64,000 bases of DNA, taken from Patescibacteria group bacterium (GTDB lineage Bacteria; Patescibacteriota; Microgenomatia; JAMCZE01). The DNA is taken from contig JAMCRP010000001.1 of assembly GCA_023380635.1 (NCBI GenBank), forward strand, positions 469,200 through 533,199. Reading direction: 5' to 3'. The notes below the pieces were generated by a model. The model saw nothing but the letters and a program-made list of their open reading frames with translations. It searched no databases and was not told where the DNA came from. The position numbers and the translations under genes are program-made. This document shows positions 32,436 through 63,336 of the stretch, piece after piece; positions within the stretch are counted from its first letter, which is position 1, and each line of letters begins with the position of its first letter.

Positions 32436-33687
32436 TAAAAAAATCCTGCTTTTAGCCGGAGGAGTTTTGGCCGTTCTAATCGTCGCCCTGGTAGTGTTTC
32501 TCCTGACTTTCGTGCGCCGGGTCGGCCCGGTAACTTTAACCTACTGGGGTTTGTGGGAGCCGGAGGAGGTTTTTCAGGGAATAATTGCCGATTACGAGCG
32601 TCTCCATCCCAATGTCACCATTAAATATATTAAGCAATCACCGTTAAATTACCGCGACCGGGTGGTGACGGCTTTATCCGGTACCAACGGTCCGGATATT
32701 GTCCGGATTCACGATAGCTGGGTGCTTACTCTGGCTTCGGGCTTATCTCCAATGCCGGCCAATGTTTATTCCCAGGCTTCTTTTAAACAAACTTTTTATC
32801 CAGCGGCCGCTACTCTTTATCCTTACGCGATCCCCCTGGAAATTGACGATTTGGCCATGTATGTTAACGATGATATTTTGCGGGCCGGGGGGGTCAGTGT
32901 CCCAACCATTTGGGACGGCGACCAGGGGTTTATGGCGACAGCCAGGAAACTAACGGTCCGGGACAGCAGCGGCCGGATTAAAACTGCCGGAGCGGCTATG
33001 GGGACAGCTTCCAATGTTGACCAGTGGCAGGATATTGTGGGTTTAATGATGGCTCAGGCAGGCGATAACTTTAACGCTGAGGCTCTGAATTACTATGTGG
33101 CTTTTGCCACTTCCGAACATATGTGGGACGAAACCCTGGATAATTCCACTCTGGCTTTTGCCAACGGCCAGGTGGCGATGTATTTTGGCCCGTCATGGCG
33201 CTATTTTGACATTAAACAAATCAACCCGAACTTAAATTTCCATCTGGCCCCGGTACCCCAGTTGGCCGGGGGAGCGGCCGCTAATTATGCTTCCTTTTGG
33301 ACCGAAGCCGTTTCCAAGCGCAGTTCTCATCAAAAAGAAGCCTGGGACTTTCTCAAATACCTTTCCAGCAGAGAAGTCTTAACGAAGTTATATGCGGCTG
33401 AAACTAATGTCCGGGGTTTCGGGGAGCCTTATGCGCGAACCGATATGGCCGATCTGCTCTCTGCTGATCCCAATGTTGGCCCGTTTATCGCGGCTGCGCC
33501 GACAGCCAAGACCTGGTATCTCGCATCTAACACCGGCGACGGGGACACCGGCATCAACACCCGGATCGGCAAATACTATGCTGATGCCATAAACTCTATG
33601 CTCCAGGGCAATAACGCCTCTTCCGTCCTGCAGACAGTGCAGCAAGGGGTAACTCAGGTACTTTCACAATATGGTCTTACAAAATAA
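32428..33687 (+). CDS. ABC transporter extracellular solute-binding protein (family 1, sugar-type)
   Basis: TM/signal anchor then LTYWGLWEPEE...; about 420 aa periplasmic binding fold. Start at the internal ATG at 32428. Confidence 0.65.
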   Translation: MDTKKILLLAGGVLAVLIVALVVFLLTFVRRVGPVTLTYWGLWEPEEVFQGIIADYERLHPNVTIKYIKQSPLNYRDRVVTALSGTNGPDIVRIHDSWVLTLASGLSPMPANVYSQASFKQTFYPAAATLYPYAIPLEIDDLAMYVNDDILRAGGVSVPTIWDGDQGFMATARKLTVRDSSGRIKTAGAAMGTASNVDQWQDIVGLMMAQAGDNFNAEALNYYVAFATSEHMWDETLDNSTLAFANGQVAMYFGPSWRYFDIKQINPNLNFHLAPVPQLAGGAAANYASFWTEAVSKRSSHQKEAWDFLKYLSSREVLTKLYAAETNVRGFGEPYARTDMADLLSADPNVGPFIAAAPTAKTWYLASNTGDGDTGINTRIGKYYADAINSMLQGNNASSVLQTVQQGVTQVLSQYGLTK

Positions 33688-33807
33688 ATTCCAAACCACA
33701 AATTCCAAACAAACTCCAATTTTTAAAAATTCAAAACCCGTAGCTTGAGGACTTTGGAGTTTAGAACCTAAGACTTGTTTGGAGCTTGTGTTTGGAACCT
33801 GGAATTT
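33686..33807. repeat. Long imperfect hairpin built from AAATTCCAAAC-family repeats between convergent genes (probable bidirectional terminator)
   Basis: Arms AAATTCCA(33687-33694)/TGGAATTT(33800-33807), TTCCAAAC(33703-33710)/GTTTGGAA(33790-33797) and CTCCAA(33714-33719)/TTGGAG(33779-33784). Confidence 0.5.
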
Positions 33808-34799
33808 TATCGATCTGCTTCTTCTTTCCAATATTTTAGTAAATCCTTCCCGATAATGGCCAGAGCTGAGGTTACCGGAATGGCAAAAATAGCGCCCCAG
33901 ACGCCGGCCAGTTTGTAGCCGATTAAAAACGAAAGCAGGACAATAATCGGATGAATTTTCAAGGCTGTGCCCATGAGTTTTGGAGCCACAAGGTTGTAAA
34001 CCAGCTGGGCGGCCAAAATGACCACGATTACGGCAATAATCATTTTCTGAACCGAGACTGTCAGCCCGGCCAAAATTATCGGAATGACAAAGATTACTGA
34101 TCCCACGACCGGAATCATGGCCAAAATGCCGGAAAGAAGAGCAGTAGACAGGGCAAAGTTAATGTTGAGAATAACCAGAGTGAGTAGAGTAATTAGTCCC
34201 AGCAGCAAGCCCAAAACAACCTGAATCTGAATAAAGGAAGCAAAGGTCTGGTTTAGAGTTTTTTCTAGGAACAGGTAATCCTCTTCATATTCGTCGGGAA
34301 TAATATCCAGGAAAAACTTGGAAATTTCCTTGCGGGAGATCAAAAAGTAAAACGAGAGAATCAGAATCAAAAGTAAATTAGTCGCCGTGGTAGCGACTCC
34401 TGATGCCAGAACCAGAGAATTATTGGCGGTCGTGCTTAAGAAACTTTCGACCCGGGCAGACAAGAAAGAATTATCCGGCAGGTAAGCCGGAACCAGGGTG
34501 GCCAGCTGGGAAAACTGAGTGACCATTGTTGGTAACACAACAAGAACCAACAAAACCACACCGGCCGCTAAGGCCAGATAAGTAATAATAGCCGCGGCTA
34601 TTCGCGGTATCCCGCCGGAAGAAATTTTAACGACCAGTGGTTCAAGAATGAAAGCCAGAACCCAGGATAAAATTAGAAGGATAAACAAATCAGCAAAAAG
34701 GCCCAGGAAAGAGCTAAACAGACCCAACAAATGCCAGCCGAGAGTTATAATGCCAAGGATGGCCAAAATCCGCAGCTCTGGAAAGTCTTTAAACTTCAT
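33807..34799 (-). CDS. AI-2E family transporter (UPF0118/PerM-like)
   Basis: 330 aa with about 8 TM helices and the family-typical topology. Confidence 0.6.
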   Translation of the reverse strand: MKFKDFPELRILAILGIITLGWHLLGLFSSFLGLFADLFILLILSWVLAFILEPLVVKISSGGIPRIAAAIITYLALAAGVVLLVLVVLPTMVTQFSQLATLVPAYLPDNSFLSARVESFLSTTANNSLVLASGVATTATNLLLILILSFYFLISRKEISKFFLDIIPDEYEEDYLFLEKTLNQTFASFIQIQVVLGLLLGLITLLTLVILNINFALSTALLSGILAMIPVVGSVIFVIPIILAGLTVSVQKMIIAVIVVILAAQLVYNLVAPKLMGTALKIHPIIVLLSFLIGYKLAGVWGAIFAIPVTSALAIIGKDLLKYWKEEADR

Positions 34800-35607
34800 T
34801 AATTCTCATTATAGCCAACCCCGATCCGTTTTCAATCGGGGCCGGCTCGCTGCCGTTGTCTACGCTGACCTCTTTGGCTATCCGCTGACGGTTAAAGAAG
34901 CCAAACTTTGGGACATCCGCCAGGTCAGGGCAAAATATTCTTCGCAAAAAGAAAAAGAAGCGCTAAAAGTTACGGGGCTGCTAAAAAAAATCCCGACAGT
35001 GGCGGCAGTCTTTTTAACGGGGTCGGTGGCCGCGCAGAATGCCACTTCTAGGGCTGATATTGATTTAATGATCGTCACCCAGCCTAATACTTTATGGCTG
35101 ACGCGATTATTGGTATTTCCCTGGCTAAAACGGCGGTTTTGTCCCAACATTTTTCTCGATTTAAACCATTTGGAAATTAAGGATCAGAATTTGTTCACTG
35201 CCCATGAAATATTACAAGCAAAATGTTTATATGACCGGGACAAGGTAGAACGACGGTGGTTGAAGGTTAATTTGTGGACAAAGGAATACTTACCAGAGGC
35301 CTACAAAAATTCCAAATCCCGAATTCCAAATCCCAAACATGCTTTAAATTCAAAATCGCAAACCCCGAAATTTTGGAATTTTCCCAATTGGACATTGAAA
35401 TTTATTTGGAATTTGGTGCTTAGCGCCTGGAATTTATTTTTACTTATCCCGGAATTTTTTGCTTTTCTCTTTCAGTATTTGTATATGAAACCAAAAATGA
35501 CTCATGAACGGGTGGGTTGGGGCTTTGCTTTTTTTCACCCTTACAACTTATCAGAAATAGTGGTACAAAAGTTTGAGAAGAAATTGCTAAAATATACCCA
35601 CCTATGA
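34750..35607 (+). CDS. Nucleotidyltransferase-domain protein (Pol-beta superfamily)
   Basis: GS...(x)9..DIDLMIV motif (LTGSVAAQNATSRADIDLMIV). The start is uncertain; the ORF-track start at 34648 overlaps the divergent gene. Confidence 0.45.
   Translation: MPRMAKIRSSGKSLNFINSHYSQPRSVFNRGRLAAVVYADLFGYPLTVKEAKLWDIRQVRAKYSSQKEKEALKVTGLLKKIPTVAAVFLTGSVAAQNATSRADIDLMIVTQPNTLWLTRLLVFPWLKRRFCPNIFLDLNHLEIKDQNLFTAHEILQAKCLYDRDKVERRWLKVNLWTKEYLPEAYKNSKSRIPNPKHALNSKSQTPKFWNFPNWTLKFIWNLVLSAWNLFLLIPEFFAFLFQYLYMKPKMTHERVGWGFAFFHPYNLSEIVVQKFEKKLLKYTHL
34808..34841 (-). promoter_or_regulatory. Promoter-like TTGAAA-16-TATAAT (minus strand) overlapping a CCCCGAT/ATCGGGG hairpin; leaderless start for the AI-2E transporter gene
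   Basis: Reverse complement of 34830-34835 is TTGAAA and of 34808-34813 is TATAAT. Hairpin arms at 34819-34825 and 34835-34841. Confidence 0.35.
35305..35390 (+). repeat. AAATTCCAAA-family repeat with an internal inverted repeat, in frame inside the nucleotidyltransferase CDS
   Basis: AAAAATTCCAAATCCCGAATTCCAAATCCCAAAC ... GAAATTTTGGAATTTTCCCAATTGG; it encodes NSKSRIPNPK...KFWNFPNW. Confidence 0.5.
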
Positions 35608-50396: not shown

Positions 50397-51314
50397 ATGC
50401 TGCCCGAGTTTGTTTGCGTGGGGGACGCGACCCGCGATTTTTTCATTTTTCCTGAAAGCCTGACCGTAACCAACGGCAAACTGGAGCTGGAATACGGGGC
50501 CAAAATTCCGGTTTCCGACATTGCCTGGTCGCTGGGCGGCAACGCGGCCAATGTTTCCGTGGGACTGTCCCGGCTGGGAATAAACGCTGCCTTGGTAACC
50601 ATCTTTGGCGATGACGACCGGGGAGTCTGGATTAAACGGGAACTAATGAAAAATAATGTCGTTTTAGACTATTCTGTAATTGATCCGGCGCGCCAGTCCA
50701 ATCTATCGACGGTGATCGTGGTCGGCGGCGACCGGACAATTTTAAGCTATCACGCTCCAACAACTCAAAAAATCGCTAAAATCCCTGAAACTAAGTGGCT
50801 GTATCTGACCTCGTCTGCCGGAAAAAGTTCCGACGAAACCTTTGCGGCGATAGAAACTTTCCTGACTGCCCGCGGCCAATCGGGCGGTCTCTGCCCCAAA
50901 ATTGCCTTTAACCCCAATATGCAGGATTTAAAGAAGGGCCGGGAATATCTCCAATCGATTTTAGCAGTGACCGAAGTTTTAATCCTTAATAAGGAAGAGC
51001 TGGAAACTTTAATCGGGGAAGTGACAGAAGAAAAGATGCGGGAACTAGGACCAAAAATAATTGCCGTGACTGACGGACCCAACGGGGCCGGAATTTTTGA
51101 TGGCCAAAAGTATTGGCAAAAACCTTCTGTCGGCGGTAAAGCAGTTGAAGCCACCGGAGCCGGAGATGCCTTTAGCAGCGGCTTTCTGGCCGCGCTGTAT
51201 TACGGTAAAAATCTGGAAGAGGCCCTCGATTGGGGACTGCGAAATTCAGGTTCTGTTATTAAGAGGGTTGGAGCCATAGAAGGTCTCCTGGATAAAAATG
51301 CTATCTCAATTTGA
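50397..51314 (+). CDS. PfkB-family carbohydrate/nucleoside kinase (ribokinase-like)
   Basis: GGNAANVSVGLSRLG and GAGDAF motifs. Confidence 0.7.
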   Translation: MLPEFVCVGDATRDFFIFPESLTVTNGKLELEYGAKIPVSDIAWSLGGNAANVSVGLSRLGINAALVTIFGDDDRGVWIKRELMKNNVVLDYSVIDPARQSNLSTVIVVGGDRTILSYHAPTTQKIAKIPETKWLYLTSSAGKSSDETFAAIETFLTARGQSGGLCPKIAFNPNMQDLKKGREYLQSILAVTEVLILNKEELETLIGEVTEEKMRELGPKIIAVTDGPNGAGIFDGQKYWQKPSVGGKAVEATGAGDAFSSGFLAALYYGKNLEEALDWGLRNSGSVIKRVGAIEGLLDKNAISI

Positions 51315-51362
51315 AATTTGAATTTTTCAATTTGAATTTAATTTCAAATTTTAAATTTCAAA
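51308..51362. repeat. AT-rich block of TTTGAAATT / AATTTCAAA inverted motifs upstream of the aldolase gene
   Basis: AATTTGAAATTTGAATTTTTCAATTTGAATTTAATTTCAAATTTTAAATTTCAAA; related to the deoC palindrome and to the AAATTCCAAA repeat family. Confidence 0.4.
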
Positions 51363-51387
51363 ATGAAAATTGGAGTTGAAAAAGAAA

Positions 51388-53967: not shown

Positions 53968-54975
53968 TTGATGATGAAACTGTTAACAATTGATCAGGAA
54001 GAAGTGAAGGAGAAGCGGGTGCTGGTAAGGGGAGATATTGACGTTCCGCTTCAAATTCCAAGCTCCAAATCCCAAATTCCAATAATCACTGACGACACAC
54101 GACTGCAAGCGATGAAACCGATGCTGGAATACCTTATTAAAAACGAGGCTTCGGAAATAATTCTTTGCGGACATATAGGCAGGCCGGAAGGGAAAGTGAG
54201 GCCGGAGTTGTCAACTAAACCCGTACAAGAATGGATAAGCGGGAAAGTGGGTAAGCAGGTAAGGGTTTTAGAAAACTTAAGGTTCGACCCGAGAGAAGAG
54301 GCCAATGATGAAAGTTTCGCGCGCGAATTGGCCGCAATGGCGGATATTTATATTAATGAAGCTTTTGCCGCTTGCGAGAGAGAACACGCGTCTATCGTCG
54401 GAGTACCGAAGCTGCTCCCGCATTACGCTGGATTTAGGTTAGCGGAAGAGGTAGAAAAATTAAGCAGGGTAATGGATAACCCGGAGAGACCAATGCTGGT
54501 AATTATCGGCGGAGCGAAGTTGGAAACAAAACTGCCGGTCATTACAAAAATGGTGCAAGCGGCTGATGAGATAGTTGTGGGAGGGAAATTGTTGGGGGAG
54601 ATAAAGGACAAAGGATCCGGAACAAAGATCCACTACCTTGAATTGACTGACGGCGGGAAAGATGTCACACTGGAATCAATCGACGCTAATAAAGAGGCGA
54701 TTGCCGACGCAGCGACCATTGTCTGGAACGGGCCGATGGGAGTAGTGGAGGACTACACCTTTCAAGTTGGCACTAGGAGAATCGCCGAATTGGTCGCCAG
54801 CAATCAAAAGGCGAATAAGATTATCGGTGGCGGGGATACAATTGGATTTGTGAATAAGTTGGGGTTATTAGATAAGTTTCAGTGGGTGAGCACGGGCGGA
54901 GGGAGCATGCTGAAATTTTTAGCCGGGGAAAAACTACCCGGCATTGAAGCACTTTATGATCAGACTGGCAATTAA
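53968..54975 (+). CDS. pgk: Phosphoglycerate kinase
   Basis: KRVLVRGDIDVPL...ITDDTRL, GHIGRPEG, GGGDT motifs; 335 aa. Confidence 0.85.
   Translation: MMMKLLTIDQEEVKEKRVLVRGDIDVPLQIPSSKSQIPIITDDTRLQAMKPMLEYLIKNEASEIILCGHIGRPEGKVRPELSTKPVQEWISGKVGKQVRVLENLRFDPREEANDESFARELAAMADIYINEAFAACEREHASIVGVPKLLPHYAGFRLAEEVEKLSRVMDNPERPMLVIIGGAKLETKLPVITKMVQAADEIVVGGKLLGEIKDKGSGTKIHYLELTDGGKDVTLESIDANKEAIADAATIVWNGPMGVVEDYTFQVGTRRIAELVASNQKANKIIGGGDTIGFVNKLGLLDKFQWVSTGGGSMLKFLAGEKLPGIEALYDQTGN
54049..54087 (+). repeat. AAATTCCAA-family repeat inserted in frame in the pgk N-terminal loop
   Basis: TTCAAATTCCAAGCTCCAAATCCCAAATTCCAATAATC encodes QIPSSKSQIPII, which is absent from canonical Pgk between DVPL and ITDDTR. 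Confidence 0.55.
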
Positions 54976-56683: not shown

Positions 56684-56819
56684 AATTCCCGCAAAAATTT
56701 TGCGGCTGCCTCAAAAAATAAAATTGATTTCCTCTGATACAAAAGTTAGTAGTTGACTGAACTAACGGCCGGGTTTACCTTGTATGCTGCCACTGTCAAA
56801 AGTGGCGTTTTAATTTCTT

Positions 56820-59312
56820 ATGGCGCAAGTTGATCCGCAAACCAAAATTACCGAACCGATTCCGGCTATTGTCCGGCCGGGGCGCCCACCAAAGGCGGAA
56901 GTTCCAAATTCCAAGCACCAAATTCCAAACACCCAGAACTCTACTAATACCAATATTAGTATTGTGCCGCCGATGCCGGAAGATCTGCCTCAGGGTCACT
57001 GGAGCGAACAGGCGGAAAAAGTCCTGCGGGAAAGATATCTTCTAAAAAACGAAAGCGGCGAGATTCTGGAAACTGCGGATCAGATGTGCTGGCGGGTTGC
57101 CTGGGACATAGCTTGCGCTGAAGCCAATTTCGGCCACAGCTACGAGAGGATTATGGAAGTAGCCCGGCAGTATTATCACCTTCTGGCCACCCACGAATTC
57201 TTGCCCAATTCTCCAACCTTAATGAATGCCGGCAAAAATAACGGCTTGCAGTACAGCGGCTGTTACGTGTTGCCGATTGACGACTCATTAATCGGCATTT
57301 TTGACGGGATCAAATACGCTGCCATTATCCACCAAAGCGGTGGGGGCACGGGTTTTTCTTTTTCGAGATTGCGGCCGGCCGGGTCCCGGGTTGGTTCTTC
57401 ACATGGAGTGGCTTCCGGGCCGGTATCCTTTCTGCAGGTTTACGACAGCGCTACTGAACAAATTAAACAGGGCGGGTCTCGCCGGGGTGCCAACATGGGA
57501 GTGTTACGCATTGACCATCCCGATGTTTTGAAATTCATTCATTGTAAAGAAGACGGCGGGATAACAAACTTCAATATTTCCGTGGCCGTCACCGATAAGT
57601 TTATTCAGGCTGTAAAAGAGGGGACTACTTATGATCTTATTGACCCGCACACCAAAAAAGTGACTGCTCAACTGGATGCCCGTCAGGTGATGGAAGAAAT
57701 TGCTCAGGGGGCCTGGAAAACCGGTGACCCGGGCCTGATTTTTATTGACCGGATAAACGCGGGGTCGGGCAATCCCGTGCCGTCTTTGGGCCCGGTAGAG
57801 ACCACAAACCCCTGCGGCGAGCAACCACTCTATCCGTTTGATGTCTGCAATCTCGGCAGTATCTTCTTAACCTACTTTGTTAAAGATAATAATGGCCAAA
57901 AAGAGGTTGATTGGGAAAAACTGGAAAAAGTGACCAAACTGGCTGTCCGGTTTCTGGATAGCGTCATTGAAAGAAATCCTTACCCGCTTCCCCAGGTGCG
58001 GGAAATGTCCCGCTTGATCCGCCGGATTGGCCTGGGAGTAGGGGGCTGGGCGGACATGCTTGTCCAGTTGGGTATTCCCTATAACAGCGATGAAGCCATT
58101 GTCCTGGCGGAAAAAGTGATGGGCTTTGTCAAGGAAAAGTCGCACGAAGCCTCACAAGAATTAGCACAAGAGCGCGGGACTTTTCCCATGTTTGCCGAAA
58201 GTATTTACCGAGACGGTCCGGCGATGCGTAACGCTACAGTGACGACCATTGCCCCGACCGGTTCCATTGGCGTGATTGCTCACACTTCGACCGGCATTGA
58301 ACCACTGTTTGCCATCGCTTTCAAGCATGTCGTCAAAGATAAATTTCTGGACCGGGAAATGAGTTACTTTAATAATTATTTTGAAAAAGCCGCAATCGGT
58401 CAGTCCTGGTATACCCCGGAAGTCAAAGAAAAAATTGTCACCCAGGGAACTATTGCCCATATTAACGAAATCCCCGAAGAAGTCCGCCGGGTCTTTGCCA
58501 CGGCTCACGAAATTTCTTATGACTGGCATGTCAAAATGCAGGCGGCTTTTCAAAAATACACCGATAACGCCGTGTCTAAAACAATAAATCTTCCTCATGA
58601 CGCCACCGCTGAAGACATTAAAAATGCCTACCTTTTGGCCTACGAGACGGGCTGCATGGGGATCACAGTCTACCGTGACGGCTGCAAAGACATGCAGGTG
58701 TTAAATTTGGGGACCAAAACCAAAGAGGCTAAAGAAGAACCCAAGACTAACGGCCACGCAGTGACGGCGGCCGCGGAAATAATGCCGCGGCCGGTGAAAG
58801 TGGACGGAGCCACTTATAAAATCGAAACGCCTTTAGGCCGGGCTTACATTACCGTTAACCAGGATGCCGAAGGCAATCCCTACGAAGTTTTTATCAGCGT
58901 CGGCAAGGCGGGTTCAGAAGTAGCGGCTATGGCCGAAGCGATCGGAAGACTAATATCCACGACTTTGCGTTTTGGTAATCATCTGCCGGCCCGCGAACGG
59001 GCCAGGGAGATAGTTAACCAATTGCATGGCATTGGCGGTGGCAGTGCCGTCGGCTTTGGACCCAACCGGGTTCGCAGCTTACCCGATGCGGTGGCCAAAG
59101 CGATCAGCATGCATTTTGGGTTAAGCGGCCAAATTGATATTGCCAATTTGAAACTGGACGCGGAAGCGCAAAGAGCCAAAGCCGAAGACCCAACCCTTAG
59201 TCCTAAATATCTTTCCGCCAAGCGTGATCTTTGTCCCTCCTGCGGGGCCGCAGCCTTTGTTTTTGAAGAAGGCTGCTCCAAATGTTACGCCTGTGGCTAT
59301 TCAAAATGCTAA
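56820..59312 (+). CDS. nrdJ: Ribonucleotide reductase class II (adenosylcobalamin-dependent) with a C-terminal Cys4 zinc ribbon
   Basis: Active-site NPCGEQPL, thiyl-radical region, C-terminal CPSCG...CSKCYACGYSKC. Confidence 0.85.
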   Translation: MAQVDPQTKITEPIPAIVRPGRPPKAEVPNSKHQIPNTQNSTNTNISIVPPMPEDLPQGHWSEQAEKVLRERYLLKNESGEILETADQMCWRVAWDIACAEANFGHSYERIMEVARQYYHLLATHEFLPNSPTLMNAGKNNGLQYSGCYVLPIDDSLIGIFDGIKYAAIIHQSGGGTGFSFSRLRPAGSRVGSSHGVASGPVSFLQVYDSATEQIKQGGSRRGANMGVLRIDHPDVLKFIHCKEDGGITNFNISVAVTDKFIQAVKEGTTYDLIDPHTKKVTAQLDARQVMEEIAQGAWKTGDPGLIFIDRINAGSGNPVPSLGPVETTNPCGEQPLYPFDVCNLGSIFLTYFVKDNNGQKEVDWEKLEKVTKLAVRFLDSVIERNPYPLPQVREMSRLIRRIGLGVGGWADMLVQLGIPYNSDEAIVLAEKVMGFVKEKSHEASQELAQERGTFPMFAESIYRDGPAMRNATVTTIAPTGSIGVIAHTSTGIEPLFAIAFKHVVKDKFLDREMSYFNNYFEKAAIGQSWYTPEVKEKIVTQGTIAHINEIPEEVRRVFATAHEISYDWHVKMQAAFQKYTDNAVSKTINLPHDATAEDIKNAYLLAYETGCMGITVYRDGCKDMQVLNLGTKTKEAKEEPKTNGHAVTAAAEIMPRPVKVDGATYKIETPLGRAYITVNQDAEGNPYEVFISVGKAGSEVAAMAEAIGRLISTTLRFGNHLPARERAREIVNQLHGIGGGSAVGFGPNRVRSLPDAVAKAISMHFGLSGQIDIANLKLDAEAQRAKAEDPTLSPKYLSAKRDLCPSCGAAAFVFEEGCSKCYACGYSKC
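56901..56934 (+). repeat. Tandem CAAATTCCAA(G/A)CAC repeat in frame in the nrdJ N-terminus
   Basis: GTTCCAAATTCCAAGCACCAAATTCCAAACACCC encodes VPNSKHQIPNTQ. Confidence 0.55.
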
Positions 59313-63262: not shown

Positions 63263-63336
63263 GGATCCGTAGCTCAATGGTAGAGCAGATGTCTTATACA
63301 CATCATGTTGTAGGTTCGAGTCCTACCGGATCCACC
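63263..63336 (+). tRNA. tRNA-Ile with anticodon UAU (decodes AUA)
   Basis: Hand-folded cloverleaf: acceptor GGATCCG/CGGATCC, D-stem GCTC/GAGC, anticodon stem GATGT/ACATC with loop CTTATAC, 5-nt variable loop, T-stem GTAGG/CCTAC with TTCGAGT loop, discriminator A and CC encoded. Confidence 0.8.

Follow-up and report, generated by a model that had tools for sequence, protein, structure and literature searches.

A heptamer array in the N-terminal tail of a class II ribonucleotide reductase from a Patescibacteria group bacterium

We analyzed a stretch of 64,000 nucleotides (hereafter the window) from the genome of a Patescibacteria group bacterium (assembly GCA_023380635.1, contig JAMCRP010000001.1, positions 469,200 to 533,199), in which a short repeat lies near the 5' end of nrdJ, the gene for a class II (adenosylcobalamin-dependent) ribonucleotide reductase (RNR). 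The explanation that we favor, with moderate confidence, is that this repeat is an arm fragment of a dispersed heptamer-array family, that it sits in a neutral in-frame insertion of 75 nt and that the peptide it encodes does not depend on the reading frame. The features on which this explanation turns are the following.

56820-59312, plus strand: nrdJ, open reading frame (ORF) of 830 amino acids, assigned from Pfam domains and homologues
56901-56935, plus strand: five-heptamer array GTTCCAA ATTCCAA GCACCAA ATTCCAA ACACCCA, encoding VPNSKHQIPNTQ
56905-56918 and 56919-56932, plus strand: two tandem 14-mers, CAAATTCCAAGCAC and CAAATTCCAAACAC, located by pattern match
56820-56895, plus strand: N-terminal extension MAQVDPQTKITEPIPAIVRPGRPPK(A), conserved with the orthologue P0001
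56896-56970, plus strand: lineage-specific in-frame segment of 75 nt (25 codons, residues 27-51), exactly absent from P0001 and its contig L001

The heptamer array in nrdJ and its reading frames

The nrdJ product carried the Pfam domains Ribonuc_red_lgN (E-value 1.7e-24, residues 62-142), Ribonuc_red_lgC (1e-124) and TSCPD (9e-15), and its best homologues, annotated as adenosylcobalamin-dependent RNRs, came from Patescibacteria (Microgenomates, Woesebacteria). Judged from its sequence, the product thus has the N domain, the ten-stranded barrel domain and the homology to annotated RNRs that define class II enzymes. At positions 56901-56936, the codons GTT CCA AAT TCC AAG CAC CAA ATT CCA AAC ACC CAG translate to VPNSKHQIPNTQ, residues 28-39 of NrdJ. 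The 14-mer pattern occurred four times in the window with at most one mismatch (0.11 expected) and the exact core CAAATTCCAA six times (0.38 expected). Tandem Repeats Finder reported a period of 14 at the nrdJ site (2.1 copies, 93% matches), and also a period of 7 with 4.0 copies at 56902-56929. The original prediction had described two tandem 14-mers of a family with other copies in the window, in frame at the N-terminus of a class II RNR. The ORF, the Pfam domains and the pattern matches bear out the family, the frame and the gene, and the two 14-mers are present at 56905-56932, but the site is better described as five 7-nt units of the form NNNCCAA than as a 14-mer pair. It consists of head-to-tail 7-nt units in at least the three to four copies by which heptameric simple sequence repeats (SSRs) or short tandemly repeated repetitive (STRR) sequences are recognized.

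It had also been proposed that all coding copies are read in one frame, pointing to selection on the frame of insertion. Our data contradict both points. In NrdJ, the first 14-mer begins at codon position 2 and the second at position 1, and the heptamers fall in phases 0, 1, 2 and 0. Under the best alignment of the nucleotides, CAAATTCCAAGC encodes (P)NSK in NrdJ but QIPS in pgk, the phosphoglycerate kinase (PGK) gene. In 16 Pfam-verified genes of other genomes with sense arrays, ATTCCAA units occupied phases 0, 1 and 2 in 8, 11 and 6 cases, and the CAAATTCCAA 10-mers in 7, 8 and 6, with peptides that were still NSKFQIPNSK-like. Such a spread of units over all three phases in genes of other genomes is the outcome that the original prediction itself had named as speaking against frame selection.

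Since the unit is 7 nt long and 14 nt make two units, successive copies necessarily rotate through the codon phases. Since 7 is not divisible by 3, one cyclic heptapeptide, PNSKFQI, results from (CCAAATT)n whichever plus frame is read (the complementary strand gives NLEFGIW), and the shared motif is a matter of arithmetic. The three plus frames of the NrdJ array read VPNSKHQIPNTQ, KFQIPSTKFQTP and SSKFQAPNSKHP; all are stop-free, and the common units are stop-free in all six frames. A translated TAACTGA heptamer array likewise gives one repeating 7-residue peptide (MacGregor, 2015; PMC4679880). The recurring peptide motif is therefore a product of the 7-base period and not evidence of frame selection. 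The peptide parallels that had been noted in pgk and in the nucleotidyltransferase gene at 34759-35607 are real, though approximate only (SKSQIPI in pgk, SKSRIPN in the nucleotidyltransferase). Among the verified genes, 16 carried the array in sense and 5 in antisense (binomial p = 0.027, a crude test). Plausible filters on coding copies are a net length that is a multiple of 3 (+21, +75 and +147 nt), the site (tail, loop or linker) and perhaps the strand.

Alignment with NrdJ orthologues, the check that had been recommended, placed the array within 25 codons that are absent from the closest of them. Most orthologues align only from about residue 48 on, and some (P0018, P0019) start at the core itself, P0019 with MDITAPEWS. 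The closest orthologue, P0001 (68% identical), is encoded on Hainich groundwater contig L001 downstream of the same DUF5667 gene as in the window. Its N-terminus, MAQVAPTTIIDEPIPALARRGRPVKT, corresponds to MAQVDPQTKITEPIPAIVRPGRPPKA in the window and passes directly into DDLPQGQWSEQA without the 25 extra codons. In the DNA alignment of the window with L001, the 75-nt gap occupies columns 213-287, with borders that are ambiguous by a few nucleotides. The 75-nt segment is made of the array and about 40 nt of unique sequence (NSTNTNISIVPPMP), only its first 30-35 nt belonging to the repeat family. In an AlphaFold model built with 67 sequences, residues 1-43 lacked secondary structure and had a predicted local distance difference test (pLDDT) score below 50, and the pLDDT was above 88 for most blocks from residue 51 on (mean 81). 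The conserved alignment columns begin at W61, and the core starts at about residue 60. According to this model, the array lies in a tail predicted to be dispensable and disordered.

Upstream of nrdJ, no promoter was found in the promoter scan. A terminator-like hairpin at 56788-56817 (TGCCACTGTCAAAAGTGGCG then TTTTAATTTC) ends only about 3 nt 5' of the nrdJ ATG, and 14 nt of it are missing from L001. A -35-box-like sequence, GTAGTTGAC (56749-56757), is common to the upstream regions in the window and L001. This hairpin may act as an attenuator; alternatively, it may do no more than terminate transcription of the DUF5667 gene that precedes nrdJ.

Further copies in the window and in other genomes

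Arrays of at least three NNNCCAA units numbered six in the window, compared with a mean of 0.3 (maximum 2) in 30 local shuffles. They occurred in three settings: as an intergenic hairpin, as a complete palindrome inside a gene, and as single-arm arrays.

33685-33809, no strand assigned: full-length intergenic copy, a long imperfect hairpin of two inverted arrays between convergent genes
35305-35451, plus strand: whole palindromic element of 147 nt, read through as 49 amino acids inside the nucleotidyltransferase gene 34759-35607
54048-54082, plus strand: five-unit array in pgk, encoding QIPSSKSQIPI in a surface loop between VPL and xDDTR
51308-51371, no strand assigned: second-type heptamer-array palindrome with AATTTGA/TCAAATT units, between a pfkB-like gene and fba

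The copy at 33685-33809 exactly spans the gap between the stop codons of convergent genes for a solute-binding protein and an AI-2E transporter. It folds with a dG of -32.9 kcal/mol on the plus strand (z -3.3) and -37.8 on the minus strand (z -3.65). The TAA at 33685-33687 forms the first three bases of TAAATTCC and has its mirror image on the opposite arm in the TTA at 33807-33809. A start with TAAAT is also seen in many copies from other phyla. This suggests that the element supplies or abuts stop codons, and it may be a bidirectional terminator.

The second palindrome, at 35305-35451, also folds, with its left arm at about 35306-35340 and its right arm at about 35400-35438. Its host gene encodes a Polbeta-type nucleotidyltransferase according to Pfam, identical to the NCBI Patescibacteria protein P0121. 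The 49-residue insert, KNSKSRIPNPKH...FIWNLVLSAWNLF, represents the left arm in sense followed by the right arm as complement, and about ten orthologues join EYLPLPF straight to ELLAFxxQY without it. A 17-mer, AAGCACCAAATTCCAAA, is common to the nrdJ array and the right arm of this element. The junction W(T)KEYLP / ExxAFxxQYLYMKPK is a hot spot for insertions: the homologues P0122-P0170 carry there from 0 to about 55 unrelated low-complexity residues, often resembling a translated palindrome (KIKNCK...ENWKLK).

Compared with the PGK of Thermotoga maritima (1vpe), the pgk product has exactly 7 extra residues, that is, 21 nt or three units, which its nearest homologue (P0241, 55% identical) lacks. 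Other PGKs of the candidate phyla radiation (CPR) have different K/Q/N-rich inserts at the same loop, for example KQETRNKKQETK with its own 7-residue period, suggesting, from sequence comparison, independent heptamer-array insertions at one permissive site. Inserts in this loop (54046-54090 in the window) were seen in P0246, P0248, P0276, P0284 and P0298, some with a 7-residue period (KQETRNK KQETK). The PGK itself (53968-54975) is short, with 333-335 residues compared with about 390-400 in solved bacterial PGKs, and its matches to the Pfam model and to PDB sequences break up into three stretches, which implies that other parts of the protein have undergone deletion beside the 7-residue gain.

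The single-arm arrays of nrdJ and pgk lack an inverted partner, and their folding does not exceed that of shuffles (z about 0). With the partner arm absent and the folding equal to that of shuffles, a hairpin role for these two coding copies was ruled out. The second-type palindrome at 51308-51371 had a period of 7 in Tandem Repeats Finder (8.3 copies) and a modest fold (dG -16.4, z -1.6). Rfam, run on the window at the gathering threshold, returned a tRNA only. This sole tRNA of the window, at 63263-63336, is a tRNA-Ile with the anticodon TAT (UAU), an uncommon bacterial means of reading AUA in place of the lysidine-modified CAU.

To look beyond this genome, we scanned GTDB genomes with the pattern AATTCCAA-N6-AATTCCAA, obtaining at least 120 loci (about 1 Mb). 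The loci listed did not include the source genome, the sample is biased toward ATTCCAA units and AT-rich Flavobacterium, and the figures drawn from it are no more than indicative. The loci listed came from Bacteroidota, Planctomycetota, Verrucomicrobiota, Acidobacteriota/Aminicenantes, Omnitrophota, Desulfobacterota, Calditrichota, Ignavibacteria and at least nine metagenome-assembled genomes (MAGs) of Patescibacteria. Among the matches listed there were 174 arrays, the commonest length being four units (subject to ascertainment bias); 71 of the 174 had an opposite-strand array within 300 nt, 35 lay in the interior of ORFs of at least 150 amino acids and 139 lay outside. As is typical of heptameric SSRs, the arrays of this pattern-biased sample were mostly intergenic, near stop codons and under-represented in ORFs. 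Their units used the same vocabulary as the window (among the matches listed, ATTCCAA 280, GCACCAA 41, ATCCCAA 25, GCTCCAA 20 and GTTCCAA 18). The 11-mer AAGCACCAAAT occurred 43 times among the matches listed (about 0.5 expected in the ~1 Mb), typically embedded in AAATTCCAAATYCC-AAGCACC-AAATYCC-AAAYAAAT-TCCAA...

The agreement extends to long words. Thirty nucleotides of nrdJ (56902-56931) are 100% identical to intergenic DNA of a Bacteroidales MAG (L011, 4832-4861), and 29 nt of the array to intergenic DNA of a Planctomycetota MAG (L038, 3269-3297). The 24-mer AAGCACCAAATYCCAAAYAAAT was found in Planctomycetota, Aminicenantes, Desulfobacterales, Bacteroidales, a viral contig and this window. 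Beyond the period, the order of the units is kept across phyla (L011, L038, L013, L017, L068, L077, L091, L141). The same unit order with identical words of 24-30 nt in Patescibacteria, Bacteroidota, Planctomycetota, Aminicenantes, Desulfobacterales and a few viral contigs raises the possibility, which we regard as tentative and rather doubtful, that the NrdJ array is a fragment of an undescribed coherent cross-phylum element with the arms [T]AAATTCCAAATYCC-AAGCACC-AAATYCC-AAAYAAAT-TCCAAT-GACCAAAAC. Phages as its vector were unsupported, since the two or three viral contigs with 22-mers are too few. Rfam, run on six element-rich loci at an E-value threshold, gave only chance-level miRNA matches.

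Coding copies were concentrated in Patescibacteria, where 8 of the 14 arrays among the matches listed lay inside Pfam-verified genes, compared with 15 of 160 in other phyla (Fisher p = 5e-5, in a small and pattern-biased sample). The host genes encode methionyl-tRNA synthetase (MetRS), leucyl-tRNA synthetase (LeuRS), two TrmD, two GT2 proteins, a Mur ligase and an integrase. The TrmD gene of locus L111 carries both arms (PKLQIPNKSKN and LEFGIWSLEF). Some three-unit in-gene matches (trigger factor, M28 peptidase, TraG) look like chance and are not to be counted as family members.

L012, 5974-6001: array in MetRS, identified by Pfam
L012, 480-514: array in LeuRS, identified by Pfam
L105 and L111 (both TrmD), L054, L085, L089, L121: further Patescibacteria loci with in-gene arrays

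Probable origin of the NrdJ insert

In the explanation we favor, a dispersed family (units NNNCCAA, on the reverse strand TTGGAAT/TTGGGAT) would normally, here as in many other genomes, form hairpins just 3' of stop codons, and a 75-nt in-frame insertion in the NrdJ tail would have arisen from a copy of its conserved arm (..AAATTCCAAGCACCAAATTCCAAACA..) plus about 40 nt of further sequence. The copy may have arrived by recombination or template switching from another copy, or by a MITE-like insertion (MITE, miniature inverted-repeat transposable element) that later decayed. It would be translated as a hydrophilic, stop-free, low-complexity peptide, most likely functionally neutral. Purifying selection would keep those events whose length change is a multiple of 3, that bring in no stop codon and that fall in loops or tails. 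With the 7-nt period, every frame of the C-rich strand would yield the cyclic heptapeptide P-N-S-K-x-Q-I, so that the same motif would appear in unrelated genes. The unit order of nrdJ, ATT-GCA-ATT-ACA, is that of the family consensus and not a run of identical units, and such heterogeneous units in consensus order favor copying over local slippage. Pieces of the family are present in frame at permissive sites in three unrelated genes of the window (nrdJ +25 codons, pgk +7, nucleotidyltransferase +49), and the sequences indicate that the same process operated twice more here, adding 7 amino acids to PGK and 49 to the nucleotidyltransferase.

Local replication slippage of a chance heptamer seed, driven by a heptamer bias of the polymerase, would produce such an array with no copying at all. 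Many bacteria have an excess of heptameric SSRs, for which slippage of the polymerase has been suggested (Mrazek, 2007, as cited in PMC4679880 and PMC4692102); the net gain in pgk is also exactly 21 nt, or three units. We nevertheless consider this origin unlikely, given that the nrdJ units differ (GTT/ATT/GCA/ATT/ACA) in an order that matches the consensus in other genomes over 29-30 nt, that the insert holds 40 nt of non-repeat sequence and that 75 is not a multiple of 7. A selected function of the peptide PNSKxQIPN, for instance as an interaction or localization motif whose frame is under selection, might be read from its presence in three proteins of the window and several elsewhere, and from the preference for sense over antisense (16 vs 5). 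That preference would be equally expected from avoidance of the hydrophobic antisense peptide NLEFGIW, and the motif arises in any frame, is missing in the nearest orthologues of each of the three genes and falls in predicted disordered regions or loops of functionally unrelated proteins, while most family arrays among the matches listed lie outside ORF interiors. A functional module is thus very unlikely.

The array could instead be an untranslated part of the 5' leader, with NrdJ starting at the ATG at 56973 (Met52, PPMPEDL). This in-frame ATG directly follows the insert, no obvious Shine-Dalgarno sequence precedes it or the ATG at 56820, and some orthologues start at the core. Against a leader, the 26 codons upstream of the insert are conserved with P0001 from the same ATG and differ from it at codon positions 1, 2 and 3 in 8, 7 and 19 cases, the third-position excess being the pattern expected of translated sequence. 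Moreover, the ORF is open through the insert, and gene callers on two assemblies chose the 56820-type ATG (for the L001 orthologue and for the 830-residue product of Logan contig L002). With the N-terminal peptide common to P0001 and the ORF open, the array is predicted to be translated from 56820, and the leader alternative appears quite improbable. A phase-variation switch, in which gain or loss of 7- or 14-nt units would toggle the N-terminal extension or the enzyme, draws on a period not divisible by 3, on the position of the array near the 5' end and on the downstream ATG that could allow re-initiation. Phase-variable loci have a perfect tract of varying unit number; here the units are imperfect and heterogeneous, with only two near-identical 14-mers, no length variant was seen in the second assembly, whose L002 protein is identical, and NrdJ is an essential housekeeping enzyme, making a switch extremely unlikely. 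We give almost no weight to a repeat-induced mis-join, even though the source is a metagenome assembly and the sequence a dispersed repeat: L002 comes from a separately generated Logan assembly (SRR10278331) and encodes the identical 830-residue protein, and the insert is exactly in frame between flanks that are collinear with the orthologue.

Several observations weigh against the arm-fragment explanation. The non-array 40 nt of the insert matched nothing in any DNA fetched for comparison, and the insert is hence not simply one copy of an element. At the nrdJ site there was no transposase, convincing target-site duplication or second arm, although the window was not searched systematically for a transposase or a parent insertion sequence (IS). 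A weak direct repeat, CGGAAG(T/A)T, flanks the insert (14 of 19 positions identical, at a spacing of 81), and its borders can pair over 5 bp (GGCGG/CCGCC). A metagenome scan for close NrdJ relatives yielded 18 loci, none covering residues 1-43, so the polarity of the indel (insertion here or deletion in L001) is read from L001 alone. Finally, the probable neutrality of the insert is judged from its predicted disorder and non-conservation only. On balance, the finding is real but ordinary in kind, an in-frame, probably neutral heptamer-array fragment in a disordered tail.

Relation to known repeats and significance

In the full-text literature, no paper contained the literal repeat DNA or peptide strings, and nothing relevant was found on CPR together with MITEs or in-frame insertions. 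The behavior of the family recalls the Rickettsia palindromic elements (RPEs), described as palindromic elements that are intergenic or in frame in genes (Ogata et al., 2000, as summarized in PMC10969869). As far as that summary goes, both consist of short, dispersed palindromic repeats, found in intergenic DNA as well as in frame in unrelated housekeeping genes, where they add a peptide at structurally permissive sites without destroying the protein. The likeness is one of behavior: the host here is a Patescibacteria, and homology to RPE-1 to RPE-10, whose sequences were not compared, is not expected. The arms also consist of 7-nt tandem units, which makes the encoded peptide frame-independent, and whereas RPEs measure about 100-150 bp, the NrdJ and pgk copies are non-palindromic, 35-nt single-arm fragments; those at 33685-33809 and 35305-35451 do fold. 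Prokaryotic MITEs with intragenic, ORF-fusing copies include ERIC, BOX and the Anabaena MITEs (PMC10969869). Like these small non-autonomous inverted-repeat elements, the family is able to fuse in frame with host ORFs, and the arms of its full copies in the window are inverted arrays. Target-site duplications, defined terminal inverted repeats and a parent IS, as found in MITEs, were not identified here, no systematic IS search having been made. Any mobility of the family is putative.

Closer in sequence are the heptamers of Xanthomonas (GGGAATC) and Nostoc (GGGGA(T/C)T), reported along with cyanobacterial STRR heptamers (Rehm et al., 2015; PMC4692102). The Xanthomonas and Nostoc repeats prefer four units, lie less than 50 bp from stop codons, are sometimes inverted and are under-represented, though present, in ORFs. 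The present family shares the 7-nt unit with a GGAAT/GGGAT core (here TGGAATT/TGGGATT on the reverse strand), four units as the commonest array, a mostly intergenic position often abutting or overlapping stop codons, occasional inversion and relative rarity in ORFs. It differs in having AT-rich, heterogeneous units in a conserved order that are usually paired in hairpins, and a CPR host in which the arrays are often inside genes. None of its units (ATTCCAA, GCACCAA, ATCCCAA) equals STRR1-3, GGGAATC or GGGGAYT, only the GGAAT/GGGAT core being common; the family is therefore an AT-rich relative of the Xanthomonas/Nostoc kind and not a described unit sequence. Because its G-strand has mostly runs of G2 rather than G3-4, the G-quadruplex explanation of the Xanthomonas and Nostoc repeats fits poorly, and we judged such a role for CCAA-core arrays to be weak. 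The TAACTGA heptamer direct repeats of marine Beggiatoaceae, Cyanobacteria and Bacteroidetes (MacGregor, 2015) likewise form arrays that are scattered patchily over phyla and have no known carrier. Their forward stops bar them from coding sequence and they lie just 5' of start codons, whereas CCAA-core units are stop-free in six frames and sit 3' of stop codons or inside genes.

These results remove a false signal, as a peptide motif recurring in unrelated proteins is here the arithmetic mark of a translated heptamer array. Annotation and homology searches can be misled by low-complexity segments such as NSKFQIPN and LEFGIWN. Within a single 64-kb window, three housekeeping genes carry in-frame pieces of an intergenic hairpin repeat, and aminoacyl-tRNA synthetases, TrmD and other genes do likewise in other Patescibacteria. 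Two points merit follow-up: how often coding copies occur in Patescibacteria, and the unit order conserved across phyla, which, if borne out, would deserve study in itself. If a coherent cross-phylum element exists, it would imply horizontal spread of a tiny mobile element, or shared machinery that generates or recognizes the sequence, and an element unusually often fixed inside essential genes in Patescibacteria would be a general source of protein insertions there. The comparison with other Patescibacteria suggests that heptamer repeats may be a simple source of many lineage-specific loop insertions in CPR proteins, as RPEs are in Rickettsia.

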